64,000 nucleotides of DNA. Origin: a virus. Shown here in pieces: positions 6,789-62,278 of this stretch (position 1 is its first letter; each line of letters starts with the position of its first letter). The notes under the pieces are model-generated. The model had not been told where the DNA came from and did no database searches. It was given only the letters and a program-made list of their open reading frames with translations. The position numbers were made by a program, and so were the translations under genes. The stretch lies in IMG/VR virus record IMGVR_UViG_3300045988_122538; one strand, given 5' to 3'.

Positions 6789-7133
6789 ATGAAGCATTTC
6801 AAAGCGGTTCCTGGCAAAGGCATTGTTGCAAGCAGCAATATCAAGGGCAGTAAACGCAGATCTATCAAAGCATCCACAGTCGATGAAATTGTACCTGGAT
6901 ACAGCGAGTATGATATCCAGGATGCAGCGTACAATTATATCTTAAGTGAGCTTGACGGTGATATAAATCATAGACTCACAGCTGAATCTGCTGCAGATAA
7001 TGCATTACGTGCATTTATTAAAGAATGTAAACAATACGAGGATCTTACAATCAGTGCAGATGAAGAGGCTCAGCTTCGTCCAATCTTCTATGATGTAGCT
7101 AATACTGAATTCAGCTTTGACGAAGATATGTAA
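6789..7133 (+). CDS. hypothetical protein
   Basis: 114-aa ORF with a GGAGG RBS. Basic N-terminal leader contains GIVASS and SIKAST motifs. Confidence 0.6.
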   Translation: MKHFKAVPGKGIVASSNIKGSKRRSIKASTVDEIVPGYSEYDIQDAAYNYILSELDGDINHRLTAESAADNALRAFIKECKQYEDLTISADEEAQLRPIFYDVANTEFSFDEDM

Positions 7134-7193
7134 TTTTCAGATATGTCGTGATTACATCTAATCAGCGATTTTATAATTCGATAACTTAACACT

Positions 7194-7241
7194 AAAGCTT
7201 CAATTGTGTAATATCTGAAATACACAGTTGAAGCTTTTATA
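7194..7241 (+). terminator. intrinsic terminator
   Basis: 17-bp stem AAAGCTTCAATTGTGTA/TACACAGTTGAAGCTTT with one G-U pair, a 10-nt loop and a following T-run. Confidence 0.75.
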
Positions 7242-7261
7242 TTATGTAAGGAGTAACTAAT

Positions 7262-7558
7262 ATGAAGAAACTAATATTATGTGCTACTATTGATACAGTG
7301 TCAGTAACTTTATCTAGAGGTGATGATTCAAGAACAAAAGGAACCGATTACTGGTTCATATACCCGAGTCGTTATGATTCCATTGTCCCAAATAATATAT
7401 GGGACGATTTAGGTGTATCTAAAGACGGAGCTGGTCATTTTTGGAATGATTCAGAAGCATTGGAATATATACAAGATAACATTGCAAACTATTATAATGT
7501 AAATGTAAATGTGTATAGTGAAACTGGATACCTTATAACTACACTATATCCAGAGTAA
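7262..7558 (+). CDS. hypothetical protein
   Basis: 98-aa ORF with an AAGGAG RBS. No domain recognised. Confidence 0.6.
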   Translation: MKKLILCATIDTVSVTLSRGDDSRTKGTDYWFIYPSRYDSIVPNNIWDDLGVSKDGAGHFWNDSEALEYIQDNIANYYNVNVNVYSETGYLITTLYPE

Positions 7559-30323: not shown

Positions 30324-31685
30324 ATGAAAGCTAATGTGAAGAATGCTAAACCTATTAACGCCGCATCATCTTCTTCTCCTATACTTGGTACCTATGAAGG
30401 TGAAGCACTTGATACTAACATCACAAATAACAATGGTCTTGATATTACTTCTGAAGTGATTGAAGCTGTACTTGAATCTGAGGATTATGCTGTTGGTATT
30501 GAAAATGGCTGGTTCATTGGATTCTTAGGACATCCAGAAGATCCAAATTGCATGGACTTCAAAGACGGTTGTATTGTGTTAACAGATATGGAACTCAATT
30601 CAGATGGAAAAGTACATGCGTCATTTAATCTACTTGATACACCTGTAGGTCGGGTTGTAAAGACCTTACAAGATGCGGGTGTCAAGTTTGGTATATCCAT
30701 AAGAGGTGCAGGTGACATCATTGATCAATCTGTAGATCCTGATACATTTGTATTCAGGGGTTATGACCTTGTATCATTTCCTGCATATCCAAATTCCATT
30801 CCTACATTCACTGAAATTGCAGCTTCTACAAACATTGAAACTCAGAAGAAATACAAAGCTGTATGTGCAGCTGTAAGAAAGAATCTTTCTTCTATTACAA
30901 GTGCATCTACAATTAATGTCATTCAGTCACAGTTTGCTCCTCAGTCAGAAGAATATGCTATGATGAACCGTAGAAAAGCTGAGATTGAAAATTGTCAAGA
31001 TGATAACCTTGATATCAGTGATCAAAAGATTGAAGCTATGACACAGTTGTATTTAGATACATTACAAAATGTATCTGTACTAGCATCACAGCTTGAATCT
31101 ATGAAACAACGTAATGCTGCTATTTCATCTGCTTCACGTAGAAAAATATCTGCATTGAAGCGAATTACAGCAAGTCAACTGCATGATGCCTTATCTGGTC
31201 TAGATAGCGTAACAGCTTCATGCGACGAGTTGAAGCATAAGAATGCTATCTTATGTGCACAGTTAGCAGACCAAAAAGAAGCTAACCTTATATATAAGCA
31301 GAAGGTCGAAAACAGTACAAATGAACTCAAAAAGAAGAACAAAATTATTGCAAGCTTACAATCTGAGCTTCGTGAAACCGTCACAGCAAGTTCAAAGATT
31401 AAGGCGAGCGCATCTAACCTGGGTGTAACTAATGATGAACTTCAAAATGAGCTTCTAGTGTGCAAGAAACAGCTAGGTGATTTCCAAAATGCGTATGCAA
31501 GTATGTATGCAGCAGCTCTCGGAGTTGACCTAGCACCTATGTCTATTAAATCATCTACTTCTGTAGACGAATTGCAAGATATTGTAGCTGGTGCTACCAA
31601 CACTATAAATATGCCGTCTGCAGTTACTGTAGAACCAGTATACCTTGATGACGAAGTAGACAATGATGACCTTGCAACATTGTAA
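30324..31685 (+). CDS. putative capsid scaffolding protein, possibly with N-terminal protease domain
   Basis: Track frame 30315..31685. ATG 30324 follows AAGGAG. Globular N-terminal half, then a long coiled-coil-like Q/K/E/L-rich C-terminal half. Directly upstream of the capsid gene, a gpO-like architecture. Confidence 0.45.
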   Translation: MKANVKNAKPINAASSSSPILGTYEGEALDTNITNNNGLDITSEVIEAVLESEDYAVGIENGWFIGFLGHPEDPNCMDFKDGCIVLTDMELNSDGKVHASFNLLDTPVGRVVKTLQDAGVKFGISIRGAGDIIDQSVDPDTFVFRGYDLVSFPAYPNSIPTFTEIAASTNIETQKKYKAVCAAVRKNLSSITSASTINVIQSQFAPQSEEYAMMNRRKAEIENCQDDNLDISDQKIEAMTQLYLDTLQNVSVLASQLESMKQRNAAISSASRRKISALKRITASQLHDALSGLDSVTASCDELKHKNAILCAQLADQKEANLIYKQKVENSTNELKKKNKIIASLQSELRETVTASSKIKASASNLGVTNDELQNELLVCKKQLGDFQNAYASMYAAALGVDLAPMSIKSSTSVDELQDIVAGATNTINMPSAVTVEPVYLDDEVDNDDLATL

Positions 31686-31736: not shown

Positions 31737-33218
31737 ATGGCAATTAAGAGAACAACTCGTAAGCCGACAGCATCTCGTTCTCGTATGATCAACCGTAGAC
31801 CGATTACTGCTGGCACAAGTATTACTTCTGGTGTAAGAAGCAAGCAAGCTCCTAAGTCTAAGGTAATGGCAAGCTTCAATGCACTGAACCCTGCACAGAA
31901 GGCATTTGTTCGTCAGTTGCAGGCAACTTCTCGTAGACATGCATCTATCATGGGTGCAACTAATACGAGTAACATCGCAGCAAGACCTGAATTCATGGAA
32001 CTTCTTCCGTTATTTGTACAGAAGCTCTTGATTCTTGATGTTTTTGGTTCTGTTGCAATGAAGTCTAGACAGCAGATGATTCCATACTTCAAGTTTATCG
32101 CAGAAAACACTAAGGGTGAAACTCACGCAGGTGATATTCTTTCTAGCCCAATGGTTCAGCGTCAGGGTCTAGATCCAAATTTCACAGGCAGAGTTGTTAA
32201 GAACGAAGTTATTGGTTCTGGTGTATTAACTGCAACTGCTAACACTGTTCTTACTTCTTTCGCTTATTTACCTGTTCTTCCAGGTTCTGTTACAATTGAG
32301 ACTAACATCAGCGGTACTACTACATCTTATGTAGATAACGGTATGGGTGAAATTCTCGACAGCACTCAGAAGACTATTGCTACAATTGATTACAGCACTG
32401 GTGAAATTACACCTACTACTGATGGTGCAACTCCACTTACACTTGCTGATGGCGATACAATGAGAGCTACTTATCAGTATGATAACGAGACAGTAGGTCC
32501 AAATGCACAAGGCGATTATGGTGCTCAGATGGGCAAGGGCTATTTACAGCTTGATGAATTCAACTTAATCGCTGAAGCACATCAGCTTGCTTGTTATTGG
32601 TCTGTATATTCTGCTTTCGCAGCTCAGACCGAATACGGTAGCAACATTGCAGATATTGCAAAGGAAGCAGCTTTTTCTGAACTTACTGCTGAAATCAACA
32701 CTAAGGGATTCCAAGAACTTGCAAAGGCTGCAAGCTTCAAGCCGCAGTATAACTGGGACGCATCTCCTGTACTTTCTGGTTCTGTTGTTCCTTCTGACTA
32801 TCTGAACATGTTCAAGCTCAAGCTGAATCAGGCATCTTCTGCTATTTATCAGGCAACTAGACTCTCTCGTGGTAACAGACTTGTAGTCGGAACTAACGTA
32901 GCTGCTTATGTTGCAATGATTGATGGTTTCGCTGCTGATAGCACTGAAGATACTGTTGGTCCGTACAAGGCTGGTCGTCTTGATCAGATGGAAATCTACG
33001 TTGATCCGTCTTATGATCCGAACAAGTGGGTAATGTGCTGCAAGTCTAACGACATCAGACGTAACTCTGCACTATTCGGCGAATATATGCCTTTCACTGA
33101 TACACAGGCAATTGGTCTTGCTAACTCCAGCGTTCAGCAGGGCTACGCTACAATGTATGCTATGAAGGTTGTAAACCCGGCGACCGTTGTCAGCGGTAAG
33201 ATCACAGGCGTATTTTAA
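31737..33218 (+). CDS. putative major capsid protein
   Basis: 493 aa, follows the scaffold-like gene. Codon usage is markedly biased toward C-ending Phe/Asn/Ile and CGT/GGT, typical of very high expression. Basic N-terminal leader. No family motif recognised. Confidence 0.6.
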   Translation: MAIKRTTRKPTASRSRMINRRPITAGTSITSGVRSKQAPKSKVMASFNALNPAQKAFVRQLQATSRRHASIMGATNTSNIAARPEFMELLPLFVQKLLILDVFGSVAMKSRQQMIPYFKFIAENTKGETHAGDILSSPMVQRQGLDPNFTGRVVKNEVIGSGVLTATANTVLTSFAYLPVLPGSVTIETNISGTTTSYVDNGMGEILDSTQKTIATIDYSTGEITPTTDGATPLTLADGDTMRATYQYDNETVGPNAQGDYGAQMGKGYLQLDEFNLIAEAHQLACYWSVYSAFAAQTEYGSNIADIAKEAAFSELTAEINTKGFQELAKAASFKPQYNWDASPVLSGSVVPSDYLNMFKLKLNQASSAIYQATRLSRGNRLVVGTNVAAYVAMIDGFAADSTEDTVGPYKAGRLDQMEIYVDPSYDPNKWVMCCKSNDIRRNSALFGEYMPFTDTQAIGLANSSVQQGYATMYAMKVVNPATVVSGKITGVF

Positions 33219-34461: not shown

Positions 34462-34800
34462 ATGTTCATTCAGAAGAAGAGAGGTTCCAGAAGAGTAATG
34501 GCTGAAACTGATGTAGCTCCGGAAGCAGCAGAGTTGCTGTTCCAGGCTGAAGACGTTGCTGAGCTTGTTGCAGAAGTAACTGGCGAAGTTGTTGAAGTTG
34601 AAGCTGACGACCAGGGTGAAGCTGTTACATTCAATGTAGGCGACGATGCTTTCACTGTTGAAGCAGAAGGCGACGAGGAAGCAGTTGAATCTTCTACTCG
34701 TGTATCTCGTTCTAAGAGACCAGTTTCTGCATCTACCAGACGTGGTGCTGTATCTAGAGGCCGCAACGGCAGAGTTGTTCGTAAGGCTCCTCGTAGATAA
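34462..34800 (+). CDS. hypothetical protein, acidic core with basic N-leader and basic C-tail
   Basis: 112 aa with an AAGGAGG RBS. The E/D/A/V-rich centre is flanked by KKRGSRRVMAETD and SRSKRPVSASTRRGAVSRGRNGRVVRKAPRR. Confidence 0.6.
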   Translation: MFIQKKRGSRRVMAETDVAPEAAELLFQAEDVAELVAEVTGEVVEVEADDQGEAVTFNVGDDAFTVEAEGDEEAVESSTRVSRSKRPVSASTRRGAVSRGRNGRVVRKAPRR

Positions 34801-34886: not shown

Positions 34887-35894
34887 ATGAATGTTAAACG
34901 ACAAAAACGTCAACCTATTGTAGCTGAAAGTACATTATCTAAGCTGACTAACTTCTTAAAGAACATTTCAGAAAAGCTATTCAACTTGTTTGATAAGCTT
35001 GGCGAATCTGGTATGAAGATAGTTGGTCAGAAAGATTTACCAGACGGTGGTCAATGGTTGAAGCTTGATTACAACGGTAAGACTGCTGAAGTTACTATCT
35101 CCCCTATTGATGGTAAAGAAGGTCACTTCAGTGTAGTTATTCAATCTTCATTTGGTGGTAAAACAACGCTTGATGATGTAAGTGAATCTGATATTGATTC
35201 TAAGATTGATGATGTACTTAAGAAAATCTTCAATGGCACATCTGATGTTAAGAGTTCTAAGAGTCTTAAGGTTACATTACAAACAATCAATTCTGCAACT
35301 GGTGTAGATGTAAACTTAACAGCTATCAAAGCAAATTATGATCCTGGTAAAGCTGTACAGGACTTAGAAACTGTGTTGGGTGATGATGCTTTTATCGCTC
35401 AGCTATCATCTGAACCAATTTCATTTGAGATTATAGATGAAGGCGATTCATATGATATCCAACAGACCGATAGTTTTGATACATGCGGTACAATCAATCA
35501 GCTTATTCAGTCAGCTATGCAGTTATGGGCTAACTTGAAAGTCATCAACTGGGCAGCTAAAGGAACTGGTTATTTTGAACTACGTAGTCGTAGCAGCGAT
35601 CTGTTATGGAGAATCTCTAGCGAAATTGACGTGTTCGGGGAATATGCTGTAGAAGTAAAGCAGCCTGCTCCTAATCCATTGTCAACTTGTTGTAATTTAT
35701 CTCTTATCATAGATCAAGGAGGATTCACTGCTGATCAAGGATATGCTCTTGTACGTGATGAGATCAAAACATATGTAAGCGTACTTGAAACGCTATATGT
35801 CAACTTCCCACATGATGTACAAAATCTATTAGACGAGATGATTCGTATGTGGAAGAAAGACTCTGAGTACCTTTATACAAGAGTATTGATGTAA
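34887..35894 (+). CDS. hypothetical protein with Dps/ferritin-like C-terminal segment
   Basis: INQLIQSAMQLWANLKVINWAAKGTGYFELRSRSSDLLWRISSEIDVFGEYAVEV parallels the Dps helix A/B pattern (LNQLL...L+N.HW.VKG..FF.LH...D.IAERI). The metal ligands are substituted. Confidence 0.4.
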   Translation: MNVKRQKRQPIVAESTLSKLTNFLKNISEKLFNLFDKLGESGMKIVGQKDLPDGGQWLKLDYNGKTAEVTISPIDGKEGHFSVVIQSSFGGKTTLDDVSESDIDSKIDDVLKKIFNGTSDVKSSKSLKVTLQTINSATGVDVNLTAIKANYDPGKAVQDLETVLGDDAFIAQLSSEPISFEIIDEGDSYDIQQTDSFDTCGTINQLIQSAMQLWANLKVINWAAKGTGYFELRSRSSDLLWRISSEIDVFGEYAVEVKQPAPNPLSTCCNLSLIIDQGGFTADQGYALVRDEIKTYVSVLETLYVNFPHDVQNLLDEMIRMWKKDSEYLYTRVLM

Positions 35895-42149: not shown

Positions 42150-42383
42150 ATGAAGCGAAAAATCACATCTTCGAAAGTACCTGTAACTGCTGCTGAAAAC
42201 GAGTCAGCATTTGATGATATTGTATCTAACATCAAGGATGATTTTGATTACATTGTAGAAGGTCTTGAAACATTAAACAGACGAGGTACAGATTCTGCTA
42301 AGCAAGCAATGTCAATTGCTGCTACTATCAGTTCAGACCTTGAAGGCTATATTGCTAATATAGCTGAATCTATTACAAAGTGA
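42150..42383 (+). CDS. hypothetical protein
   Basis: 77-aa ORF with a GAGGTG RBS. Leader is MKRKITSSKVPVTAAE. Confidence 0.6.
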   Translation: MKRKITSSKVPVTAAENESAFDDIVSNIKDDFDYIVEGLETLNRRGTDSAKQAMSIAATISSDLEGYIANIAESITK

Positions 42384-42396
42384 GGTTGACTTTATT

Positions 42397-42671
42397 ATGA
42401 AAATACTTACGAGAAAAATATATGCTTCTACTATGAATTATAATACACCGGAATTGAAAAACTTCGCAGAAGCCTTCAAAATATTGTAGTAGACGATGAC
42501 AATCAATTTATACAGCTTATCGATAATATGATAAACAATACACCAATGAATTATGTGCCTGAAACACGAGCACTCAAACGATGTATTGATGATATGCTTG
42601 AATACGACAGCAAGGAAGACGTTCGTGAGTGGGTACTTAAGTATGCAACAGACTTAGGGTGTATTTCTTAA
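42397..42671 (+). pseudogene. frame-split small gene (30-codon ORF plus a continuation in the -1 frame)
   Basis: ATG 42397 after GAGG runs to TAG 42487-89. The frame one nt back is open from 42444 to TAA 42669-71, and the conceptual fusion reads sensibly (...NFAEAFK/IVVDDDNQFIQLIDNM...). The junction lies at an A4 run. Confidence 0.35.
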
Positions 42672-42695
42672 TAACATATAAGGAGTGAATATAAT

Positions 42696-43688
42696 ATGAA
42701 AATTTCTAAGCGTAAGGTATTATGTGCATCTGCTAAACAAGTTAGACGTATGAACAGATCTTCTGTAATGGCTGCTGATAGTGATTACATCAAAATCGGT
42801 AACATGGTCATTCCTAAAGACGCAAGTCAGTATGGATACGATAGTTATGAAAACATTCAGAAAGATACAAGACGTCGTTATGATACTGAGAAGGCTGCTG
42901 AAAAAGAAGCTGCGGAAAGAGCAGCTCGTGAACAGAAAGGTGCAAAGTTATATAAACAAGTTGAATCTATTGTAAATTCTGGTAATACTGCAAGTGAACA
43001 GCTTCAAGAGCTATTTGATTTGATGGTACCTAATTCGGGTTCATCTGACACGGCTGCCGGTGAATTAGTTCGTGCTATGATGCGTTTACAATACAGATGG
43101 CACAATGACGGCGATATGTTTAATCAGGGTTATGGTCTAGAAACTTGTGCTCCTTCTGCTGCATATTTATGCGATAATGTAGAACCAGCTGCTGCTCTAT
43201 TTGAACAGTTAACTGGAATTATGGAGGGTGGCGATCAACAATATGAAGATGGTCTAAATGATCTTCAATCTATTGTTATTGACTACATCGTTGATAATCC
43301 TGAATTATGTGGAATGGAACCTCCTGCTGATTCTCGTGATTACCATAGCGAAACTGTAGATTGGTTCGTAGAAGCAGGTCATAGTTATGAATATGAGCTA
43401 GATGTATCTGGTGATTTAGAGGAATACGTCAGACATGGATGTATTTCATGGACTGATGTTGAATACATGGTTGAAGAGCTCACACGCACGTATGGTGGTG
43501 AGTTAGTAGCTTGGGCTGCTGATGGGTTCACAATCACAAATCTTACAAGTGATGAATATGAAGAATGGGATAGAATGTGGATCCCGGAACTTAATGCTTA
43601 TCTTGAATCGCTTGAAGAAGAGTTTCCTAATTATGGCGAAGAAGATGACGAGTACGATGAAGAATATGATGGAGAGGAGGATTACTAA
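42696..43688 (+). CDS. hypothetical, strongly acidic protein
   Basis: 330 aa with an AAGGAG RBS. Basic leader MKISKRKVLCASAKQVRRMNRSSVMAADSD. C-terminus is EEEFPNYGEEDDEYDEEYDGEEDY. Confidence 0.6.
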   Translation: MKISKRKVLCASAKQVRRMNRSSVMAADSDYIKIGNMVIPKDASQYGYDSYENIQKDTRRRYDTEKAAEKEAAERAAREQKGAKLYKQVESIVNSGNTASEQLQELFDLMVPNSGSSDTAAGELVRAMMRLQYRWHNDGDMFNQGYGLETCAPSAAYLCDNVEPAAALFEQLTGIMEGGDQQYEDGLNDLQSIVIDYIVDNPELCGMEPPADSRDYHSETVDWFVEAGHSYEYELDVSGDLEEYVRHGCISWTDVEYMVEELTRTYGGELVAWAADGFTITNLTSDEYEEWDRMWIPELNAYLESLEEEFPNYGEEDDEYDEEYDGEEDY

Positions 43689-43939
43689 TGAAAAAGATCA
43701 TTGCAGCAACTAAAGACTATTCACAGTTTGAAATTTCTGATATTGAAAGAGAGCTTCTCAACAATGTTGGATCAAGAGCAGGTGTAGATCCTGCAATAGT
43801 TGTACAGCTAGGTGATGGTACCGGCGGTGTAATCTACGAAGATGCAGATGGAAACATCATTATGGATAACTTAGATACAAACAAAGTCACATATGATGCA
43901 CAAAATATCATTGATGAAGTTGTATCCTCTTGGAAGTAA
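43688..43939 (+). CDS. hypothetical protein
   Basis: 83 aa with a GGAGG RBS and TAATG overlap. Leader is MKKIIAATKD. Confidence 0.6.
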   Translation: MKKIIAATKDYSQFEISDIERELLNNVGSRAGVDPAIVVQLGDGTGGVIYEDADGNIIMDNLDTNKVTYDAQNIIDEVVSSWK

Positions 43940-43954
43940 TGGAGTTGTGTTACA

Positions 43955-44194
43955 ATGAAACGATATGTAAAATGTTCACAAAGCACATTGAAAGCTACAG
44001 GTAGAACATGGTCATCGTTTGTTAAAGATGTAGAGTCTACTTTAGGATATGAAGTAGATTCTGCATACAAACGTAGTCCTGATGATTTTATTGCACTGTA
44101 CAAAGATGGTAAATCATATCTAGGTGAAGTAACAAAGTACTATGATGGTATGTATGAACTATTACTCAGCAATATAAAGCTGTGGATCTATTGA
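43955..44194 (+). CDS. hypothetical protein (MK+Y[IV]K leader family)
   Basis: 79 aa. N-terminus is MKRYVKCSQS. Confidence 0.55.
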   Translation: MKRYVKCSQSTLKATGRTWSSFVKDVESTLGYEVDSAYKRSPDDFIALYKDGKSYLGEVTKYYDGMYELLLSNIKLWIY

Positions 44195-44203
44195 GGTGGT
44201 TTA

Positions 44204-44536
44204 ATGAAGAAGTATATTAAATCAGTAAGCAACATGTCTCAATTGTCGACTTACTTAAATTTTGATGAAGCGAAAAATAAAATTCTTAAGATGCTGAATA
44301 ACGGTACTACGAAATCTGTATCTATTGTACCACGTGGTGCTGACGCAGCTTCTAAAGACATACTTGAATTAGCACAGATGCTCGAGTGTGACCAGGATAT
44401 AGCAGATGCATTAGAATCTGCAGGTGTAATCGGTCATTTAGATTTGGGGCACAACCGATACGCTCAAGGTCCTATTAGTTTGAAGTTCCGAATCACTATG
44501 AGCAAGCGTGGAAAATCCGGATGGTCTAATTGGTAA
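44204..44536 (+). CDS. hypothetical protein (MK+Y[IV]K leader family)
   Basis: 110 aa with a GAGGTGG RBS. N-terminus is MKKYIKSVSN. Confidence 0.6.
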   Translation: MKKYIKSVSNMSQLSTYLNFDEAKNKILKMLNNGTTKSVSIVPRGADAASKDILELAQMLECDQDIADALESAGVIGHLDLGHNRYAQGPISLKFRITMSKRGKSGWSNW

Positions 44537-44545
44537 GATGATAAT

Positions 44546-44611
44546 ATGAAGTTCAATGTAGATACAACACTAGGTAAGAAAGCAGAATCTAAAATCAGTG
44601 AATTAAGGTAG
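44546..44611 (+). pseudogene. 21-codon remnant homologous to the 5' end of the resolvase-like gene at 44992
   Basis: MKFNVDTTLGKKAESKISELR* against MAGIDVTLGKKAEQKIEEWL of 44992..45486: 11 of 16 aligned residues are identical, and the DNA is visibly similar. Confidence 0.45.
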
Positions 44612-44616
44612 GTTTT

Positions 44617-44979
44617 ATGAAGAGATATATTAAATCATCAGAAGCAGATTCAGTTATGCTATTACAAACAGATAAAATTGAAGAAGATAGCTATACCAAT
44701 TATCTATTTAATATAGTAGTAAATGGTAAAACTGTCGGTGATTGCAGCGTACTTGTTGATGAAGATTACGCATACTGTGAACGAATCGACATCAACAAAG
44801 ATCAAAGAAATCAAGGATTTGGTACTAATGCTTTATACAAACTTGCTGATATGTTTGGTGATATTGTAGTAGCTCCAGATAATGAAGATGCAAAACGTCT
44901 TTATGAACGAATTGGATGTGAATACAATGGAAACGATGCAGATTACATTGATCAAGGATATGGTGTTTACAGAATATGA
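44617..44979 (+). CDS. GNAT-family acetyltransferase (MK+Y[IV]K leader)
   Basis: 120 aa. The acetyl-CoA motif is QRNQGFGTNALYKL. N-terminus is MKRYIKSSEA. Confidence 0.65.
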   Translation: MKRYIKSSEADSVMLLQTDKIEEDSYTNYLFNIVVNGKTVGDCSVLVDEDYAYCERIDINKDQRNQGFGTNALYKLADMFGDIVVAPDNEDAKRLYERIGCEYNGNDADYIDQGYGVYRI

Positions 44980-44991
44980 TGGAGGCATATA

Positions 44992-45486
44992 GTGGCAGGT
45001 ATTGATGTTACACTCGGCAAGAAAGCTGAACAAAAAATTGAAGAGTGGCTTGACAGACCAAATGATGGATACTGTTTTGACAGAATACCAGATCAAATGA
45101 CAGGTTTCTATGGTTCTAAGAACATATGTGATTTCACATTGTTCAAAGCACCTAACATGTACTACATTGAGTCTAAAGCCACTTGGGAAGATAGATTTGA
45201 TTTTTCAATGCTTACACCAACACAACATGATAAGCTACTTGAGAAATCTAAAATTGCTTATGTCTATGGTGTAGTTATAATTCTGTTTGCACATCATCAA
45301 CGTGCATTTATAATTGATATAAACGACATCAAACATCTTGAAGATCAAGATAAACACTCTCTCAACATAAATAAGATTGATAATTGGAATATTCCGTACA
45401 AGGAAATCCAAACTATCCCTAACAGTCGAAAGACTTATCTAGATTATACAGGGGATTTTGATGTTGAATTTATGTGGAAGAGGTGA
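44992..45486 (+). CDS. RecU-like PD-(D/E)xK nuclease / Holliday junction resolvase
   Basis: GTG start after GGAGG. DRIPDQ...ICDFTLFKAPNMYYIESKAT...FDFSMLTPTQHDKL fits the RecU-type pattern. Confidence 0.55.
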   Translation: MAGIDVTLGKKAEQKIEEWLDRPNDGYCFDRIPDQMTGFYGSKNICDFTLFKAPNMYYIESKATWEDRFDFSMLTPTQHDKLLEKSKIAYVYGVVIILFAHHQRAFIIDINDIKHLEDQDKHSLNINKIDNWNIPYKEIQTIPNSRKTYLDYTGDFDVEFMWKR

Positions 45487-45493
45487 TAATGTT

Positions 45494-45925
45494 TTGAAAT
45501 TATATATCAAAGCTTCTAGTAATGTCATACTATCATCTGATATCAAATCATTTGTTACAAATTTGAGTAATAAGTGTTTAGATACTATCGGCTTATCATT
45601 GTATGTAGAAACCGCTAGACCTAACAAGCAAGGTACTAAGTTAGAGCTATATACATGTGGTACAAACACATGGGTTGGTGAATACACAGTTAAGTCTGAT
45701 CCAACAGAACGAGATTTCAATCGTGTATACAATGCTGTAGTAAAACGCTTTTTAGAAGTTACTCAAAATTGGTACAAAACATATCTTTCTGATAAGATGA
45801 GCATTGATGAGTCAATTGATTACACTATAACTAATAATCATATTGAACGTAAATCTAATTGTGATGTAAATACATTCAGAGAATTCATGCAAAATGCTAT
45901 CAGTTCAGGTAAGCTTCATAACTAA
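45494..45925 (+). CDS. hypothetical protein (MK+Y[IV]K leader family, TTG start inferred)
   Basis: Track frame 45458..45925 overlaps the previous gene. TTG 45494 follows GGAAGAGGTGA and gives (M)KLYIKASSN. Confidence 0.5.
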   Translation: MKLYIKASSNVILSSDIKSFVTNLSNKCLDTIGLSLYVETARPNKQGTKLELYTCGTNTWVGEYTVKSDPTERDFNRVYNAVVKRFLEVTQNWYKTYLSDKMSIDESIDYTITNNHIERKSNCDVNTFREFMQNAISSGKLHN

Positions 45926-47631: not shown

Positions 47632-48294
47632 ATGGTTGGAATTCCAAGTACTATCAAGCAATATGCTCAGGAAGATATAAATGCAGCATTAGGTAGAGTA
47701 AGTCATAACATGAAGTTCAAATCAATGACTTTTGAAACTAGCAAAGTAGATAGACTGAGCAATAATTATACAGTATATGCAACAGCTACTATATTGTGTC
47801 CAGATTTAAGACTACAGTTTGATTTCATTATGGAATATGCTGTAGAAAATGATTATGTATATGCAAGTGGAGATGTAGATGAATTTGCAGCTTCACTTGA
47901 AGAACGATATGCAGAATGTGAAGATGGTAAAGATGGTGAACCTATCAAAGCATCCACTCGGATCAAACGTAAGCCTATTATGGCTGCTGATATAGATAGT
48001 GAAGATGAAGATGAGTTTGTAGATACTGTAGATGATTTATCTGATAGCGTTGATGATATTCAAGATACACTTGATGAAATTGACGGTACAGAAATTGAAG
48101 AAGACGATATAGATATTGATCTTGATAACAACATTGCAAATCACTACATTGCAGAATGTGACACTTGTCATGGCATCTTTATTTCTGCACTTGTTGAATC
48201 TGATCAAGAAGTTGAAAAAGTATCCGGTATATGCCCTCTTTGCGATAAGGAAACAGACCAGTACCTCAAATTCATTGTTCGTCCTGTAGAATAA
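47632..48294 (+). CDS. hypothetical acidic protein with C-terminal zinc ribbon
   Basis: 220 aa with an AGGAGG RBS. Contains a D/E run (DIDSEDEDEFVDTVDDLSDSVDDIQDTLDEIDGTEIEEDDIDIDLD) and CDTCHG...CPLCD. Confidence 0.6.
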   Translation: MVGIPSTIKQYAQEDINAALGRVSHNMKFKSMTFETSKVDRLSNNYTVYATATILCPDLRLQFDFIMEYAVENDYVYASGDVDEFAASLEERYAECEDGKDGEPIKASTRIKRKPIMAADIDSEDEDEFVDTVDDLSDSVDDIQDTLDEIDGTEIEEDDIDIDLDNNIANHYIAECDTCHGIFISALVESDQEVEKVSGICPLCDKETDQYLKFIVRPVE

Positions 48295-49219: not shown

Positions 49220-50872
49220 ATGCGTATAATTAAATCGCAGAGAAATATTGCTGCTTCTTATATGCCTCCTAATCCATATGATATAGGTCCCAGTGACCCT
49301 AAGGAGTACAAGGTAGCAGATACTTCTAACTACGAACTTAACGTTCAATTTGACGATCCTATTATCATTTATGATGATGGTGATTTTGAATTTACTTCTG
49401 ATAAGTACAATCTTGACCCTGCTCCTGACAGTACTGGTGAATATAAGGATGAAGAATACAATGTAAATGTCATTGATGCAGATACTTTGTATGATATCAT
49501 ATATGGTCAGTTGATTCAGAAACATGTAACGGAAAAATATCCGTCTGGTAGATATCGTGTAACTGGTATCATTACGCTTCAATTTGACATTGATGGTGTT
49601 GAATATGATGAGGAGTTTTACGGTATTGATGAAGACGGTGATCCAGATTATTCTCGTGATTACTATGCTGATAATGCTGATAATGCTGATGCAAAACTTG
49701 TAAGTTTAGACTTAACAAGCTTGAATATTACAGCTGAAATCAATAGTGCTAGCGATATAATTGTATCAGCTGATGACGAAGAAACATGGGATTATCTCAA
49801 AAGCAAGCAAGTTACAGACTCCGACGGTATGCTAACAGATTATACATTGTATGTAAATTCTGATGGTTCTCGTTACATCTGTATGTTCGGTGATAATGAC
49901 GTATATGAACCAGATCCTGCGTATGCCGACTGGGAAGGCGATTCTGAAGAAGAAGCTTATGAATGGTTCAACAACTACACTTCAGGATATGAAGATGAAG
50001 ATGACATCTATGGTGCTACAAACACTTCTAATTCTGCAGAGTATGCAGGTGAACGAAACTATGATGGTACACATGTATTCTTGGTGAGGTCACCGTTGTT
50101 TGATAACATGACGTATGAAAACATGCTTCGTGATATGAGTCAGTATCGTGTAGAATCTACAGGATATTCCGATACTTTATGCGTGTATGCTGAACCTGAT
50201 GAAAAACAAGGTGTCCTTGATTTAATTGAGGATTTCAATCAGAATATTTCTGATGATAATATTATCAGTGCAACTGATGTTGATTACGAAGATGATATAC
50301 AAGAAATTGGTCAGGAATTCACATCAGAAAATACCTCCATCAACAACAATCGACTCCCTGCGGTTTTCAACATGGTAAGTTTTGAACCTGGTACTGTAAA
50401 CATTGATTACGGTGGAGGTAAATTTGACAATGTTGCAGAATACCTCACACAGTATGATGTTGTAAACTTAGTTTATGACCCATATAACAGAACTGCAGAG
50501 CATAACAAAGAAGTAATTCGTCTTGTAAGGGAGCATGGTGGTGCTGATACTGCTACTTGCTCTAATGTGCTGAATGTTATCAAGGAACCTGAAGTACGAC
50601 TCAACGTATTAAACAACATCAAGAAGCTTGTAAAGCCTAATGGTAAGGTTTACATCACAGTATATGAGGGCAAGGGCAATAATGCTGAAGGTCCTACAAA
50701 GTCTGGCTATCAGCTTAATAGGAAGACAGCAGAATATATGGATGAAATTCAACAAGTATTTCCTGATGCAAAACGTAAGGGCAAGTTGATTGTTGCTACT
50801 AATAGTAGTGGTTCTGTAACAAGTGCTACAAATGAATCTTGCTATGACAATACTAGCTTAACTACCTTGTAA
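49220..50872 (+). CDS. acidic N-terminal region fused to a class I SAM-methyltransferase-like domain
   Basis: 550 aa. The first ~330 aa are D/E/Y-rich. C-terminal motifs: IDYGGGKFD (motif I-like), LVYDPY (acidic end of beta-2), CSNVLNVI, VKPNGKVYITVYEG. Confidence 0.5.
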   Translation: MRIIKSQRNIAASYMPPNPYDIGPSDPKEYKVADTSNYELNVQFDDPIIIYDDGDFEFTSDKYNLDPAPDSTGEYKDEEYNVNVIDADTLYDIIYGQLIQKHVTEKYPSGRYRVTGIITLQFDIDGVEYDEEFYGIDEDGDPDYSRDYYADNADNADAKLVSLDLTSLNITAEINSASDIIVSADDEETWDYLKSKQVTDSDGMLTDYTLYVNSDGSRYICMFGDNDVYEPDPAYADWEGDSEEEAYEWFNNYTSGYEDEDDIYGATNTSNSAEYAGERNYDGTHVFLVRSPLFDNMTYENMLRDMSQYRVESTGYSDTLCVYAEPDEKQGVLDLIEDFNQNISDDNIISATDVDYEDDIQEIGQEFTSENTSINNNRLPAVFNMVSFEPGTVNIDYGGGKFDNVAEYLTQYDVVNLVYDPYNRTAEHNKEVIRLVREHGGADTATCSNVLNVIKEPEVRLNVLNNIKKLVKPNGKVYITVYEGKGNNAEGPTKSGYQLNRKTAEYMDEIQQVFPDAKRKGKLIVATNSSGSVTSATNESCYDNTSLTTL

Positions 50873-58369: not shown

Positions 58370-58446
58370 GGGCCTTTAGCTCAGTCGGTTAGAGCAGCTG
58401 ACTCATAATCAGCAGGTCGTCAGTTCAAGCCTGACAAGGCCCACCA
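58370..58446 (+). tRNA. tRNA-Met or Ile2 (anticodon CAU), CCA encoded
   Basis: Hand fold: GGGCCTT-TA-GCTC-AGTCGGTTA-GAGC-A-GCTGA-CTCATAA-TCAGC-AGGTC-GTCAG-TTCAAGC-CTGAC-AAGGCCC-A-CCA. G1-C72 and the anticodon stem are not initiator-like. Confidence 0.9.
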
Positions 58447-58518
58447 GCCCGCAAGGGCACCTTTTATATCCCTTTGTTCTACTATTTTATTTTACTCCTT
58501 TCATTTTTTTATTTGTTG

Positions 58519-58561
58519 TCTTAGAAATGATACATATCATGTGCGAGTATCATTTCTAAGA
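58519..58561 (+). repeat. perfect 15-bp inverted repeat (hairpin)
   Basis: TCTTAGAAATGATAC (58519-33), a 13-nt loop, then GTATCATTTCTAAGA (58547-61). Follows a T-rich tract after tRNA-Met. Confidence 0.9.
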
Positions 58562-58584
58562 TACAATTTTCCTCTAAGTAGGAC

Positions 58585-58593
58585 AATCGTTAT
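58585..58593 (+). promoter_or_regulatory. AATCGTTAT box
   Basis: Exact copy 28 nt upstream of tRNA-Gln. Confidence 0.4.
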
Positions 58594-58620
58594 TGTAAGT
58601 GAAGATAATCACTTACATGA

Positions 58621-58696
58621 TGGACTATAGCCAAGGGGTAAGGCAACGGACTTTGACTCCGTCATTCCGCTGGTTCGAATCCAGCTAGTCCAACCA
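58621..58696 (+). tRNA. tRNA-Gln (anticodon UUG), CCA encoded
   Basis: Hand fold: TGGACTA-TA-GCC-AAGGGGTAA-GGC-A-ACGGA-CTTTGAC-TCCGT-CATTCC-GCTGG-TTCGAAT-CCAGC-TAGTCCA-A-CCA. U1-A72 is as in bacterial tRNA-Gln. Confidence 0.85.
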
Positions 58697-59051
58697 GCAG
58701 TAGGAGTAATTTTCTCAATTTTAACGAACCTGCACACAAAAAAACATCGGTATAAGAATTGATGACATTCGGAAAGACGAACGCTGGTTTTAGAGCAAAT
58801 GTGGTTCCAACGTAAACAAATAAACAGGGATATGCGGCGAGGCGGACCTAAACGTCGACCATGTAGTGTCAGCGTAGCGAGATGATATGCATTCACTTCA
58901 CAGGGTATAGGCTGTTTAACCTGTGAAGAACAGCCAGCAGGGGCAGGACCTGCACACTACACCAGCTGTAAAGGGTGCTTTTCTCAATTTCTAATTACCA
59001 GCCGATAAAGTAGGAGAAAATTGATGACATTCTGGAAAGACAGATATCAAT

Positions 59052-59127
59052 GCTTCGATAGCTCAGTAGGTAGAGCAGGGGACTGAAAATCCCCGTGTCA
59101 TTGGTTCGATTCCAGTTCGGAGCACCA
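59052..59127 (+). tRNA. tRNA-Phe (anticodon GAA), CCA encoded
   Basis: Hand fold: GCTTCGA-TA-GCTC-AGTAGGTA-GAGC-A-GGGGA-CTGAAAA-TCCCC-GTGTC-ATTGG-TTCGATT-CCAGT-TCGGAGC-A-CCA. Confidence 0.9.
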
Positions 59128-59136
59128 AAACCAAAT

Positions 59137-59213
59137 CCGGATGTAACTCAGTTTGGTAGAGTGCTTGCTTTGGGAGCAAGATGCCGCAGGTTCGACTCCT
59201 GTCATTCGGACCA
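59137..59213 (+). tRNA. tRNA-Pro (anticodon UGG), CCA encoded
   Basis: Hand fold: CCGGATG-TA-ACTC-AGTTTGGTA-GAGT-G-CTTGC-TTTGGGA-GCAAG-ATGCC-GCAGG-TTCGACT-CCTGT-CATTCGG-A-CCA. C1-G72 is typical of bacterial tRNA-Pro. Confidence 0.9.
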
Positions 59214-59360
59214 GCTAGAGCTCAGCAGACACACCTTGACTTCATAGCAGTCTTAAAAATGAATGGAGCCCCGATTTCATTCGATTTACAGGGTGATTGA
59301 AAAATCGGATAAATCATGATTGGGTTGGTAAACCTCAGTTCGCTGGAAGCTTCCAAATAT

Positions 59361-59447
59361 GCCGCTGTGGTGGAATAGGCAGACACAAGGGACTTAAAAT
59401 CCCTCGGAGTAAAATCCGTACCGGTTCAAGTCCGGTCAGCGGCACCA
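59361..59447 (+). tRNA. tRNA-Leu (anticodon UAA), type II, CCA encoded
   Basis: Hand fold: GCCGCTG-TG-GTG-GAATAGGCAGA-CAC-A-AGGGA-CTTAAAA-TCCCT-long variable arm CGGAGTAAAATCCGT-ACCGG-TTCAAGT-CCGGT-CAGCGGC-A-CCA. Confidence 0.9.
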
Positions 59448-59984
59448 GTGCTGTTGATAGTTTAATGAGGTCGTAAGTTCAAGTTAACCTTATGAATGAG
59501 GTTCGGGCTTATGTGCCAATAGTCTGTGGAAACAAATTTCCGTGAGGTTGTATCAGCTATATCTGATATGTAAAACTAGGTCGTGAGCAGCGGGATTGCT
59601 ACCAAACCAGCAAGCAAGGTGGATAAGCCTTGCAAACTCAGCACAAAAAATGTCAGTTCCTTCAGAATTATTGACATTGGTGTTACCTCCAGTAACCTAT
59701 AAAAAAATGATCAGGAGCTGACATTATAAGGTGAATATATCTAGTGAGATATGCGTAGGTTGCAAACTACAATTATCAACAACGTAGTGACCTAGATACA
59801 ACACATGATAAAATATGATAGTTGTTATGTCAGAGTTGCAACGATGGTGTATCAGCATCATATGGTTCATGTAAAGGATGAATCAGATCGAAGGACGATA
59901 AAGATATTATGCGTACCTGGCTGTTAATCTGTTGGAAGGTGCAAGTCCTTTATTCACCCCCAATTTTTTTCTAAGGAGAACGAT
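59448..59984 (+). ncRNA. candidate large structured ncRNA (unclassified)
   Basis: 537 nt between tRNA-Leu and the deaminase gene with no ORF of 60 aa or more. At least six perfect 5-7 bp local hairpins. Ends in a tRNA-like T-arm, acceptor strand and CCA at 59935-59962. Confidence 0.3.
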
Positions 59985-60440
59985 ATGAATCCATTCATGG
60001 AATTGGCAATGTTAGAAGCCCTTGAAGGCATTGAATTAAATCATGGTGGACCGTTTGGAGCTGTTATCGTCAAAGACGGTAAAGTGATAAGCAGGGCACA
60101 TAACATGGTGATTGCTAACAATGATCCAACTGCTCATGGTGAAATTCAAGCAATTAGATCTGCATGTAAGAAACTCAATACATTTGATCTAACAGGTTGT
60201 GAAATTTACACTACTGGATATCCTTGTCCAATGTGTTTTTGTGCTATCCTTTGGTCAAACATTGATAAGGTGTATTACGGCTGTAATACATCTGATACAG
60301 AAATAATTGGATTTCGTGACAAGCAGTTTTATGATTCTATTCCTGCTAAGATGCAGGAGATATGTTATGAAGTAGATAGACAAGAATGTTTATCTATTTA
60401 CAACACTTACAACAATATGTCAGATGCTACTAATTACTAA
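59985..60440 (+). CDS. CDA-fold zinc deaminase, guanine-deaminase (GuaD)-like
   Basis: GGPFGAVIVKDGKVISRAHN...NDPTAHGEIQAIR...GYPCPMCFCAILWS closely parallels B. subtilis-type guanine deaminase. Zinc motifs are H(G)E and PCxxC. Confidence 0.8.
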   Translation: MNPFMELAMLEALEGIELNHGGPFGAVIVKDGKVISRAHNMVIANNDPTAHGEIQAIRSACKKLNTFDLTGCEIYTTGYPCPMCFCAILWSNIDKVYYGCNTSDTEIIGFRDKQFYDSIPAKMQEICYEVDRQECLSIYNTYNNMSDATNY

Positions 60441-60471
60441 TGTATTCAAGCTGATGTAACAGTCAGCATAT

Positions 60472-60553
60472 GCAGATGTGGTGAAAGCGGAAGCCACCTA
60501 GATTGAGTTCTAGCCCTTGTAGGATGCAGGTTCAAATCCTGCCATCTGCACCA
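60472..60553 (+). tRNA. type II tRNA-like gene with non-canonical anticodon loop (identity undetermined, possibly Ser-UGA-like or pseudogene)
   Basis: Good acceptor (GCAGATG/CATCTGC-A-CCA), T-arm (GCAGG-TTCAAAT-CCTGC), D-arm and variable arm. The anticodon arm CTAG-ATTGAGTT-CTAG gives only a 6-nt or 8-nt loop. Confidence 0.5.
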
Positions 60554-60850
60554 GAAACACAAAGTAAAGTGAAAGTACTCGTGAAAAGATTACAAACACT
60601 GAGATAAAACCATGGAGCTACTTGACATTAAGTAGTAGAGAAGTGGGTGTATCAGTAGCTTTATCATCATAGACCTTGTGGTTGGAGTAGCTGTCGCTAG
60701 GACAATATGCGATGCTGCATATAATTGCAGTGAGTGTCCCAGCTATTCTTAGTGTTTAGAGGTATCATAAAAAGTACCTGATTAGATGTCGGTGAGTATC
60801 GGCTAAACGTCAAAAGCTTTTCGTGTGACTATTACGAAAAATAGTCATAT

Positions 60851-60935
60851 GCGGATATGGTGAAATTGGCAGACACGTTAGATTTAGGTTCTAATGCCGT
60901 AAGGTGTGCAGGTTCGAGTCCTGTTATCCGCACCA
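60851..60935 (+). tRNA. tRNA-Leu (anticodon UAG), type II, CCA encoded
   Basis: Hand fold: GCGGATA-TG-GTG-AAATTGGCAGA-CAC-G-TTAGA-TTTAGGT-TCTAA-TGCCGTAAGGTGT-GCAGG-TTCGAGT-CCTGT-TATCCGC-A-CCA. Confidence 0.9.
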
Positions 60936-61276
60936 CAGGTTCTTGCATTCCAACCTAAGAGCACAAAAAAGACGAATGTAACTTGCTGCTAGCACTAGGA
61001 TAGTGGCATTTTAGACACCCTAGGGTTTTCATCCTTAACCTTAAAAAGGATAGACTATTTGAGCATTAGATAGGCTTTATGTTCGTTGTAGCTGCTTGCC
61101 TTTGTAGGGGTGGCTAGCGGACTAGTCCGATGTGCTAGGACATTAGTGCAATTAGCTCAGCAGTATGTCATGAATCTAATGTGTATTATTCTGCTAGGCA
61201 TGATATTATAGGTGAGTCTTTATATAAAGCGTGCTGTTCGGCAAACAGATATGATGCGGGGCAGCAACACCTATAT

Positions 61277-61367
61277 GTAGGAGTACCCAAGAGGTTCAAG
61301 GGAGCGGTCTTGAAAATCGCCAGCACAGGTGACTGTGGCGTGGGTTCGAATCCCACCTTCTACGCCA
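61277..61367 (+). tRNA. tRNA-Ser (anticodon UGA), type II, CCA encoded
   Basis: Hand fold: GTAGGAG-TA-CCC-AAGAGGTTCAA-GGG-A-GCGGT-CTTGAAA-ATCGC-CAGCACAGGTGACTGTGGC-GTGGG-TTCGAAT-CCCAC-CTTCTAC-G-CCA. Confidence 0.85.
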
Positions 61368-61408
61368 ATTTGTATTTCAAATAATGTGTATATGTAAAGG
61401 AGGAACTT

Positions 61409-61582
61409 ATGAAAGTATATGATAAAGATGATGATATGGAAGAATGCACTTCTCCATATGGTAACAGATCTTTGTTCATAACAAAAGAACAAATACAGGC
61501 TTTACTTGATGGTAAAGTGTTAGCCGATGATGAGTTTGATGAATATGGAATTTTCATTGAATTAGAAGATGCTGAAAAGTAG
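61409..61582 (+). CDS. small acidic ORF (57 aa)
   Basis: Below the ORF-track cutoff. AAGGAGG RBS, ATG 61409. Sequence is MKVYDKDDDMEECTSPYGNRSLFITKEQIQALLDGKVLADDEFDEYGIFIELEDAEK. Stop TAG is at 61580-82. Confidence 0.5.
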   Translation: MKVYDKDDDMEECTSPYGNRSLFITKEQIQALLDGKVLADDEFDEYGIFIELEDAEK

Positions 61583-62261: not shown

Positions 62262-62278
62262 TAACTACCAAACATAAA

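Follow-up and report, generated by a model that had tools for sequence, protein, structure and literature searches.

In bacteriophage T4, the internal proteins (IPs) and Alt are made with propeptides of 7 to 19 residues, which direct them to the scaffolding core and which the protease gp21 takes off (PMC9026906, PMC3012670). The IPs share only this capsid-targeting sequence (CTS; 10 to 19 amino acids), ten residues of which suffice to package foreign proteins, and the IP genes are hypervariable between relatives (PMC9026906, PMC3012670). T4 propeptides as a whole range from 7 to 65 amino acids, numerous cuts are made in the scaffold, and there is a site at the N-terminus of gp21 too (PMC9026906, PMC3012670). 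Here, we analyze a 64,000-nt stretch of viral DNA (IMG/VR record IMGVR_UViG_3300045988_122538, referred to as the window), in which many unrelated proteins begin with a short basic leader; genes and proteins that bear it are called tagged. A sequence-only reading of the window had proposed that the leader is a prohead-protease or capsid-targeting signal like the T4 CTS. The core of that proposal withstood each computational check able to refute it, and it gains from a gp21-family protease in the window, from the same motif in the scaffold and head proteins, from the portability of the leader, and from neighboring genes whose leaders switch type together; two of its details, a gene for a scaffold alone and an intact gene at 42397, did not hold.

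The head proteins of phages phiKZ, 201phi2-1, and SPN3US have propeptides with several redundant sites (PMC9026906, PMC10052503). These phages have jumbo genomes, a diverged gp21-family protease (gp175/gp245), many propeptide-bearing head and ejection proteins, and an inner body or ejection-protein bolus, and they cut after Glu (S/A/G-x-E). We know of no short universal tag of seven residues described for this group. Herpesvirus assemblins (UL26/UL80; S21, with Ser-His-His) have the same fold and are likewise fused N-terminally to a scaffold, with one site at the boundary and others in the scaffold; to our knowledge, herpesviruses do not use the assemblin site as an N-terminal tag on cargo proteins. 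The assemblin R-site reads Y-[VL]-[KQ]-A↓[ST] and the M-site [VL]-x-A↓S (arrows mark the cut, known or predicted, throughout). In pseudorabies virus, the sites are YLQA-T and VQA-S (PMC4498786).

The phage of the window is a myovirus with a T4-like head; as in T4, its head genes comprise a gp20-like portal, a protease of the gp21/S77 family, and a Gp23-family capsid protein. The leader resembles the T4 CTS in being a short N-terminal propeptide, as predicted, on unrelated and hypervariable accessory proteins (7 to 19 amino acids in T4, 6 to 30 here), in ending with the motif of the capsid propeptide, scaffold, and protease (here judged by the motif), and in a minimal form that starts M-K-x-Y (MKTYQEFIAE↓A in T4 IPII and IPIII, MKRYIKA↓S here); in both phages, the cargo, putative here, includes enzymes of a host-modifying type (Alt in T4, a GNAT acetyltransferase and a methyltransferase here). 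Unlike in T4, however, Ala (or Ser/Cys) rather than Glu precedes the predicted cut, a strongly basic tag stands in place of a CTS with two Glu, protease and scaffold form one protein whereas T4 gp22 is separate, most of the putative cargo is acidic rather than basic, and the tagged fraction, known here from sequence alone, is larger (about 15 of ~72 window genes). Redundant sites within one leader or propeptide, as in the phiKZ group, occur in the capsid protein and in the products of 42696 and 6789. The tag Y-I-K-A-S comes close to the assemblin R-site, and the protease-scaffold fusion has a candidate boundary site (EIAA↓S, in a disordered linker) in addition to candidate scaffold sites; the predicted consensus would, like assemblin sites, combine an aliphatic P3 with Ala at P1 and Ser at P1′, the scissile bond being placed here by homologous positions. 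Unlike assemblin, the closest relative of the window protease by both sequence and structure is T4 gp21 (S77). The best-supported interpretation is that the window carries a T4-type CTS system from an uncultured clade of Firmicutes phages, apparently new in the Ala-type specificity of its gp21-family protease and in an unusually large, exchangeable tagged set.

A basic leader recurs at the N-termini of unrelated proteins

When the sequence was re-read, all of the leader peptides quoted in the sequence-only reading were found at their positions. The pattern [KR].{0,3}[IVM].[AC][SAE] occurs within the first 30 amino acids of 14 of the 72 window proteins, compared with 1.9 ± 1.3 expected from shuffles done within each N-terminus so that composition was kept, and none of 2,000 shuffles reached 14. 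Leader sites are approximately fivefold denser at N-termini than elsewhere (1.20 versus 0.22 per 100 amino acids), and the strict form Y[IV]K[ACS][SV] has four occurrences, all at residues 4–8 and none elsewhere in the proteome. The two AT-rich control phages displayed no excess, with the motif in 3 of 58 N-termini of T4 (expected, 1.3) and in 0 of 52 N-termini of Bacillus phage HSE3 (expected, 0.9). The motif [IV].A[SA], which was defined independently from the scaffold domain (see below), is present in 9 of 71 window N-termini versus 2.6 ± 1.5 expected (p = 0.001), and the T4 motif [IVL].E[ASTG] shows no enrichment there (6 of 71 versus 5.7 expected). Applied to the 71 N-termini, our own motif finder (expectation maximization, zero or one occurrence per sequence) yielded a diffuse, overfitted motif that carried no information; it was replaced by the regular-expression tests against shuffles, control phages, and the scaffold-derived motif. 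The earlier claim that a basic leader ending in [IVM]-x-[AC]-[SAE] is shared by proteins with dissimilar bodies is thus upheld, and the suspicion that such a motif is no more frequent than Lys-rich, AT-biased N-termini would produce is not borne out by either the shuffles or the two control phages.

Across the relatives fetched, 158 of 858 distinct N-termini have the leader, compared with 38 ± 6 after shuffling, and the Ile/Val at P3 peaks sharply at residue 5 (40 of the 158 leaders), giving a minimal tag of seven residues, M-K-R-Y-I-K-A↓S. The trait is bimodal: of the 40 families that comprise four or more members, 24 are entirely untagged, and in 7 the leader is found on 50% or more of the members. 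Helicases, RecU, the endolysin, neck proteins, and baseplate proteins are untagged. Where present, the leader is kept among orthologues although its length differs.

Shared DNA was considered as the origin of the leaders and rejected, since only one pair shares any: the leaders of 44204 and 44617 (repeat at 44198/44611) are 89% identical over 27 nt, including 6 nt before the ATG. The remaining leaders differ in their codons (CGA/AGA, AAA/AAG, ATT/ATC, TCA/TCT) and in their upstream DNA. Paralogy of the tagged protein bodies was rejected as well, the best pairwise E-value being 0.024 over 15 amino acids.

The prohead protease is fused to a scaffold rich in the same motif

The gene at 30324..31685 (+), previously described only as scaffold-like, encodes a prohead protease of the T4 gp21/S77 family (residues ~20–151) followed by a coiled-coil scaffold (~170–453). 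Specifically, its product matches PHROG 207 (head maturation protease; E = 6.6e-21), and protease homologues at 70–81% identity have PF03420; the product itself has no Pfam match at E < 0.01. A tblastn search with the protease matched gp21 of T4-like cyanophages. The top Foldseek match of its AlphaFold2 (AF2) model is T4 gp21 (5JBL; E = 7.6e-7, TM 0.64), while matches 4–20 are herpesvirus assemblins, at the level of the fold only (E 0.01–0.2). An hhalign comparison with T4 gp21 (E = 1.3e-5) aligned His70 and Ser125, pairing LGHPEDP with LNHPPRA and GISIRGAG with GVSSRGLG (window and T4 gp21, respectively), and the catalytic His and Ser are invariant in 31 homologues. Because sequence searches of the PDB with the protease, as a single sequence and as a profile, matched only coiled-coil proteins, the link to gp21 needed structure prediction and hhalign. 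The C-terminal half of the product is long, helical, and lamin-like. Taken together, PHROG 207, PF03420, Foldseek, and hhalign therefore make this gene a protease-scaffold fusion: a scaffold is indeed present, but not by itself.

Candidate self-cleavage sites are PINA↓A (after residue 13) and EIAA↓S (after residue 167), the latter invariant and located at the domain boundary, and further candidates in the scaffold part are VLA↓S, ITA↓S, VTA↓S, IIA↓S, VTA↓S, IKA↓S, IKS↓S, and IVA↓G. The sites coincide with loops of low predicted local distance difference test (pLDDT) score in the AF2 model (residues 1–16, 152–169, and 355–366). In residues 171–453, [IV].AS occurs 6 times versus 0.46 expected, and the scaffold domains of 29 diverse homologues contain 154 occurrences of [IV].A[SA] versus 21.9 expected, with the consensus [IV]-T-A-S; [IVL].E[ASTG] shows no excess in the scaffolds of this clade. 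As a check of the method, T4 gp22 proved to be enriched in [IL].E (16 versus 5.75), the motif established by experiment for gp21 (PMC9026906), and not in [IV].A[SA]. The same holds for the protease-scaffold fusion of the distant relative HSE3, with 12 occurrences of [IVL].E[ASTG] versus 3.3 expected and no enrichment of [IV].A[SA]. Scaffold composition thus appears to reveal the specificity of the prohead protease. A switch within a sub-clade was sought by comparing G[IV]xDT variants of the protease N-terminus with the scaffold motif, and none was found, all 113 scorable homologues (among the best 120 of 1172 matches) keeping [IV].A[SA] scaffolds. Protease homologues have N-termini that converge on K-[IV]-T-A-S, followed by a conserved ILGTYEGE.

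Since Ala occupies the position of the T4-type Glu in two comparisons of homologous positions, we place the cut after Ala. At the end of the protease domain, hhalign aligns EIAA↓S of the window with EITE↓S of T4 gp21, and at the junction of the 42696 family (see below) I-K-A↓A-E-S corresponds to L-N-E↓A-D-S. The scissile bond is most likely the one that follows Ala, with an aliphatic residue at P3, any residue at P2, Ala at P1, and Ser or Ala at P1′. Given that T4 and HSE3 use Glu, the assemblin-like specificity would be a parallel change in a shared fold and not a sign of family membership; we regard such a change as probable on these comparisons.

Three further head-module proteins display the motif. 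The major capsid protein (31737..33218, +) belongs to the Gp23 family (Pfam Gp23, PF07068, E = 6.7e-20; PHROG 138) and has a basic N-terminal propeptide of ~45 amino acids with candidate sites RRPITA↓G (after residue 25), ITS↓G, and KSKVMA↓S (after residue 45); sites of the RRPITAG/KIMAS type are kept in 11 of 12 capsid orthologues, while the rest of the propeptide varies. The conserved acidic protein at 34462..34800 (+) starts with the leader MFIQKKRGSRRVMA↓ETDV (predicted cut after residue 14), and 20 of the 21 orthologues in its family have a basic leader, 6 to ~35 residues long, whose end, [VI]-x-A↓[EDG], directly adjoins the conserved acidic body. In the family of the protein at 34887..35894 (+), only the closest relatives (4 of 22 members) share its leader, MNVKRQKRQPIVA↓EST (predicted cut after residue 13); the others have INCS or INAG without basic residues. 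The motif is therefore common to the capsid propeptide, the protease N-terminus, the 34462 protein, and the leaders of putative enzymes and acidic proteins encoded far from the head module, as the sequence-only reading had noted.

The leader is portable and its type follows the genome

Comparison with homologues in other genomes revealed that the leader can be present or absent on the same protein. Outside its own variants (P0121, P0131, P0170), the closest homologues of the tagged GNAT (up to 72% identity) are ~10 amino acids shorter and leaderless; one such homologue resides in a conjugative element beside a relaxase and ParAB, and another in a temperate prophage, at the moron slot. The remaining tagged homologues start with MKRYI[RH]SS, and one of these (P0157, MKRYIHSS) is located in the tail island of a clade phage, beside further tagged genes. 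Similarly, the C-terminal zinc-ribbon domain of the 47632 product occurs as a stand-alone tagged gene in four relatives: L019 (MYKYIKA↓SDDEF), L022 (MRIKSKRIYA↓SEF), L025, and L020. Longer members of the 42696 family have an extra N-terminal domain that is joined to the rest by a basic linker and the motif.

The 42696 family also shows that the junction itself can change. Among 46 distinct N-termini in which DYIKIG was located, the residues before the conserved body (A-E/D-S-D-Y-I-K-I-G-N) are [IV]x[AS]↓A in 37 and [LV]xE↓A in 8, examples of the Glu type being MKIRVNE↓AESDY and MVRKLHLNE↓ADSDY. In an ENA contig from a different phage lineage (L070, homologue P0210), 9 of 27 neighboring genes start with MKL[RK]I[ND]E..., a T4-type I-x-E leader, and the neighbors of a Glu-type junction in another genome (L071) start with MIRV[NL]E.... 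An S-adenosylmethionine lyase (PF23780) and two DUF3293 proteins are among the products of the tagged L070 neighbors. Because the neighbors in Glu-type genomes have Glu-type leaders too, the type of leader follows the genome and not the protein family. Together, the GNAT homologues, the domain boundaries, and the 42696 junction argue that the leader is a portable module, matched to the protease and specific to this phage clade. No isolate relative of L070 was found. An AcrVA2-like protein encoded in the same L070 stretch is without a leader.

Tagged accessory genes turn over between close relatives

Most of the tagged accessory genes lie between 42 and 51 kb. The first, just downstream of an SNF2 helicase gene, encodes a small, clade-conserved acidic protein (42150..42383, +) with the leader MKRKITSSKVPVTA↓AENES (predicted cut after residue 14); 14 of its 16 orthologues are tagged (e.g., MYRYIKA↓AEEPS, MKKLRRITA↓ASED, and MKRVIMS↓AEASED), with a constant junction and a variable leader length. 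The next gene (42397..42671, +) bears a leader, MKILTRKIYA↓ST..., as claimed, but is not intact: as it stands, it consists of a 30-amino-acid open reading frame (ORF) and a 47-amino-acid ORF, one A having been lost from the A-run GAATTGAAAAACTTC near 42457. Frame +2 continues ...KLRRSLQNIVVDDD...DLGCIS, and restoring one A would give a protein of ~91 amino acids. Two homologues (P0201, P0189) have the domain intact and fused upstream of a 42696-type domain through an internal cleavage-type linker. The break may mark a genuine pseudogene, a slippage site, or an assembly error in the homopolymer.

The adjacent 330-amino-acid acidic protein (42696..43688, +) has two candidate leader sites, KVLC↓AS (after residue 10) and RSSVMA↓ADSDY (after residue 26). 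Its AF2 model is confident (pLDDT 86, predicted TM-score 0.72); residues 1–4 and 8–27 have pLDDT below 50, indicating a disordered leader, the first strand starts at residue 31, and the block mean pLDDT exceeds 80 from that residue on. At least 126 homologues occur in metagenomes, and no match that would assign a function was found in Pfam or PHROGs with the sequence or in the PDB or BFVD with the model.

Four minimal leaders follow. An 83-amino-acid acidic protein (43688..43939, +) starts with MKKIIA↓AT (predicted cut after residue 6), and its orthologue in L013 with MKRIYSALNK; a 79-amino-acid protein (43955..44194, +) starts with MKRYVKC↓S (predicted cut after residue 7), and its orthologues in L012 and L013 with MKRFIKCS. 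The 110-amino-acid protein at 44204..44536 (+) has MKKYIKS↓V, in which Val at P1′ is atypical; the corresponding leader in strain L011 is MKRYIKS↓A. The GNAT acetyltransferase (44617..44979, +; Pfam Acetyltransf_1, E = 7e-8) has MKRYIKS↓SEA, with a predicted cut after residue 7. Further downstream, a 143-amino-acid protein (45494..45925, +), with a TTG start and a GAGGTG ribosome-binding site, has another minimal leader, (M)KLYIKA↓SSN (predicted cut after residue 7), and a two-domain protein (47632..48294, +) contains internal candidate sites, PIKA↓S after residue 107 and KRKPIMA↓ADID after residue 118, the latter followed by the acidic zinc-ribbon domain. Finally, a 550-amino-acid acidic protein with a C-terminal methyltransferase domain (49220..50872, +) has the leader MRIIKSQRNIAA↓SY (predicted cut after residue 12), and 13 of the 19 members of its family are tagged; its Methyltransf_23 match (E = 5e-6, 26.7 bits) falls just below the cut-off of 27. 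The identities given earlier to the GNAT and the methyltransferase fusion agree with these matches. Beyond these two, searches of Pfam and PHROGs, and of the PDB and BFVD with the 42696 model, assigned no function to the tagged accessory proteins.

Two more leader-bearing genes (6789..7558, +) lie in a hypervariable island of the tail module. The product of 6789-7133 has candidate sites GIVA↓S (after residue 14) and RRSIKA↓S (after residue 28), and the leader of 7262-7558, MKKLILC↓A, is weak. This slot, which extends from the tail tube gene to the conserved gene at 7633 (6744-7632), has a different gene content in every relative, with zero to seven unrelated genes, many of which are tagged (MKRVVKAS, MKRVIKNTRSINAAS, MKKVVKAD); in L067, a GNAT and a phosphoribosyltransferase-like protein, both tagged, are encoded there.

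The tagged cargo genes are hypervariable between near-identical strains. Specifically, strain L011, which is 99% identical, is without 42397-42671, has one additional tagged gene, and contains 45494. The relatives L012 and L013 are without 44204, the GNAT gene, and 45494. A truncated copy of the RecU 5′ end (MKFNVDTTLGKKAESKISELR, then a stop) is found at 44544-44609, upstream of the GNAT gene, and the RecU gene proper (44992-45486) restarts at a GTG with MAGIDVTLGKKAEQKIEEWL, giving a repeat at 44567-44595 and 45010-45038. Since L012 and L013 have an intact RecU (MKFNVDTSIGKKAEAKIKEWL) and neither 44204 nor the GNAT gene, and since the window contains the truncated RecU copy, it looks as if 44204 and the GNAT gene arrived as a two-gene cassette that entered the RecU 5′ end and duplicated the target.

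The phage and other features of the window

The window has a G+C content of ~36%, and every gene is on the (+) strand. The portal gene (35-1372, +) has Portal_T4 (PF07230). The endolysin consists of Amidase_2 and CW_7 repeats and one protease homologue is annotated from a Clostridium sp. metagenome-assembled genome (MAG), which together make a Firmicute the probable host. The nearest isolates have capsid-protein identities of only 25–27%, and IMG/VR contains the same phage along with graded relatives at protein identities of 46–85%.

A sigma-70 region-2 protein is encoded at 63231-63830 (+). Nine tRNA genes occupy 58370-63965 (Met, Gln, Phe, Pro, Leu three times, Ser, and one without assignment); the anticodon loop assignment for the call at 60472-60553 is odd, with two bases. 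The gene at 62343-63221 encodes a 292-amino-acid protein, the first 120 residues of which match a PemK/MazF-like toxin family (E = 4.8e-13) and are followed by a long C-terminal extension. The DNA motif TCGTTATATA(T/C/A) is present on the (+) strand at 6748, 36397, 42103, 45943, 46553, and 62281, in each case intergenic and 30–160 nt before a start codon, and may be a phage-specific promoter element. Its count of 8 versus 5.0 ± 2.2 expected represents no excess, and it is not restricted to tagged genes, so that it offers no evidence on their timing.

Discussion

We favor, as likely, the interpretation that the leader is a T4-type capsid-targeting propeptide matched to the phage's own prohead protease. 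The head would be built with the gp20-like portal, the gp21-family serine protease fused to a coiled-coil scaffold, and the Gp23-family capsid protein. The protease would recognize [Ile/Val]-x-[Ala>Ser/Cys]↓[Ser/Ala/acidic] and cut after Ala, at the position of Glu in T4 gp21 sites; it would cut the scaffold many times, remove the capsid propeptide of ~45 amino acids, and trim its own ends. Diverse accessory proteins with fast turnover would bear basic leaders of 6–30 residues with the same site, and by analogy with the T4 CTS the leader would tether them to the scaffold core while the shell closes. The protease would then remove the leader, and the mature proteins would be retained in the head and pass into the next host together with the DNA. 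These steps differ in how far we would commit to them: cleavage of the leader by the phage protease is highly probable, a targeting role is somewhat more probable than the opposite, and delivery of the tagged proteins into the host is a tentative suggestion that falls a little short of an even chance.

Several points weigh against this interpretation. We infer cleavage, packaging, and delivery for an uncultured phage that is available only as sequence. The motif is short, and ~38 of the 158 clade-wide matches (approximately a quarter) are expected by chance; single weak cases, such as LILCA in 7262 and 44204 with its Val at P1′, are therefore uncertain. Some protease homologues are without an N-terminal site. 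Ala at P1 is read from sequence statistics and from the two comparisons of homologous positions, and all experimentally characterized gp21-family proteases cut after Glu (PMC9026906, PMC10052503). Most of the tagged proteins are strongly acidic (net charge −8 to −71), which seems awkward beside packed DNA; T4 IPs are basic (PMC9026906). Finally, several tagged genes lie among replication genes and might therefore be expressed before proheads exist.

The acidic composition would be less surprising if the motif were a prohead-protease site and not a delivery label, with the tagged proteins acting as transient components of the core or of assembly, or being switched late by cleavage, and then expelled or degraded. 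The same motif does mark a scaffold that is expected to be destroyed, and the 34462 family (small, acidic, and encoded in the head module) is reminiscent of gp67 and gp68, core proteins that T4 cleaves to fragments (PMC9026906). We nevertheless consider this account unlikely, as the tagged set includes folded enzymes (the GNAT and the methyltransferase) and a well-folded domain of 300 amino acids with sites only in the disordered leader, a pattern of retained T4 and phiKZ head proteins rather than of scaffolds cut throughout, and as hypervariable genes exchanged with other mobile elements are typical of host interaction rather than assembly. A quite different possibility is that a host factor, for example a Prp-like N-terminal processing protease, cuts or binds the leader. 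The likely Firmicute hosts, to which the endolysin domains and the Clostridium sp. MAG homologue point, would suit such a factor: Prp trims ribosomal protein L27, Staphylococcus phage 80alpha uses Prp for its capsid and scaffold proteins, and Ala-Ser follows the cut in L27-type sites too. Yet the phage has its own gp21-family protease fused to a scaffold saturated with the motif, and the motif tracks the phage lineage, given that other lineages have L/I-x-E at the same junction and in neighboring genes. Inspection by eye of the listed leaders, with no dedicated search, showed no likeness to the L27 leader (...LNLQFF↓A), and on balance we rate a host factor as very improbable.

We assign a similarly slim chance to gene history as the source of the shared N-termini, i.e., short patches of homology that move cassettes, or relics of duplication, without a function of the peptide. 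The 27-nt identity (89%) between the leaders of 44204 and 44617, the apparent insertion of these two genes into the 5′ end of RecU, and the variation in cargo between near-identical strains all speak for such a history, but the other leaders differ in codons and upstream DNA, so what is conserved is the peptide; moreover, the key residues lie at variable distances from the initial Met and also internally at domain boundaries, the motif is enriched in the scaffold, and the tagged bodies are not paralogous. An artifact of composition or translation, in which Lys-rich, AT-biased starts are selected for initiation, deserves even less credence: MK(K/R) is a commonplace start among AT-rich phages of Firmicutes, and the loose form of the motif spans few residues, but shuffles that keep composition yield 1.9 ± 1.3 instead of 14, AT-rich T4 and HSE3 have no excess, and the motif is enriched far from start codons, in scaffold domains, and conserved at orthologous junctions.

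If the leader is a capsid-targeting propeptide of the proposed kind, the clade has a further, more speculative history, which we would put slightly below even: a gut-type clade of Firmicutes myoviruses may have re-tuned its gp21-family protease from Glu to Ala at P1 (assemblin-like I/V-x-A↓S) and made of a basic tag of seven residues, MKRYIKA↓S, a universal address label. This would be the first gp21-family protease reported to use an Ala site, with implications for the evolution of specificity within the fold shared by tailed phages and herpesviruses. Immune sensors of the CBASS type (cyclic oligonucleotide-based antiphage signaling system) detect gp21-type prohead-protease cleavage of L-x-E loops (PMC12991175), and the switch in specificity could be an escape from such sensing; the finding is relevant to host defenses that sense the activity of prohead proteases (PMC12991175). 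Phages, plasmids, and prophages would exchange cargo genes, which would be re-tagged to suit the protease of the recipient, one and the same protein family alternating between A-type and E-type leaders. If the tag works as proposed, the candidates for host takeover or anti-defense are the GNAT, the methyltransferase fusion, the acidic zinc-ribbon proteins, and the confidently folded domain without a known relative, and in a sister lineage a tagged S-adenosylmethionine lyase is among them. The seven-residue tag would also be a handle for loading reporter proteins into the heads of phages of Gram-positive bacteria, as the CTS is for T4, and the injected proteome of these phages would become readable from their genomes alone.

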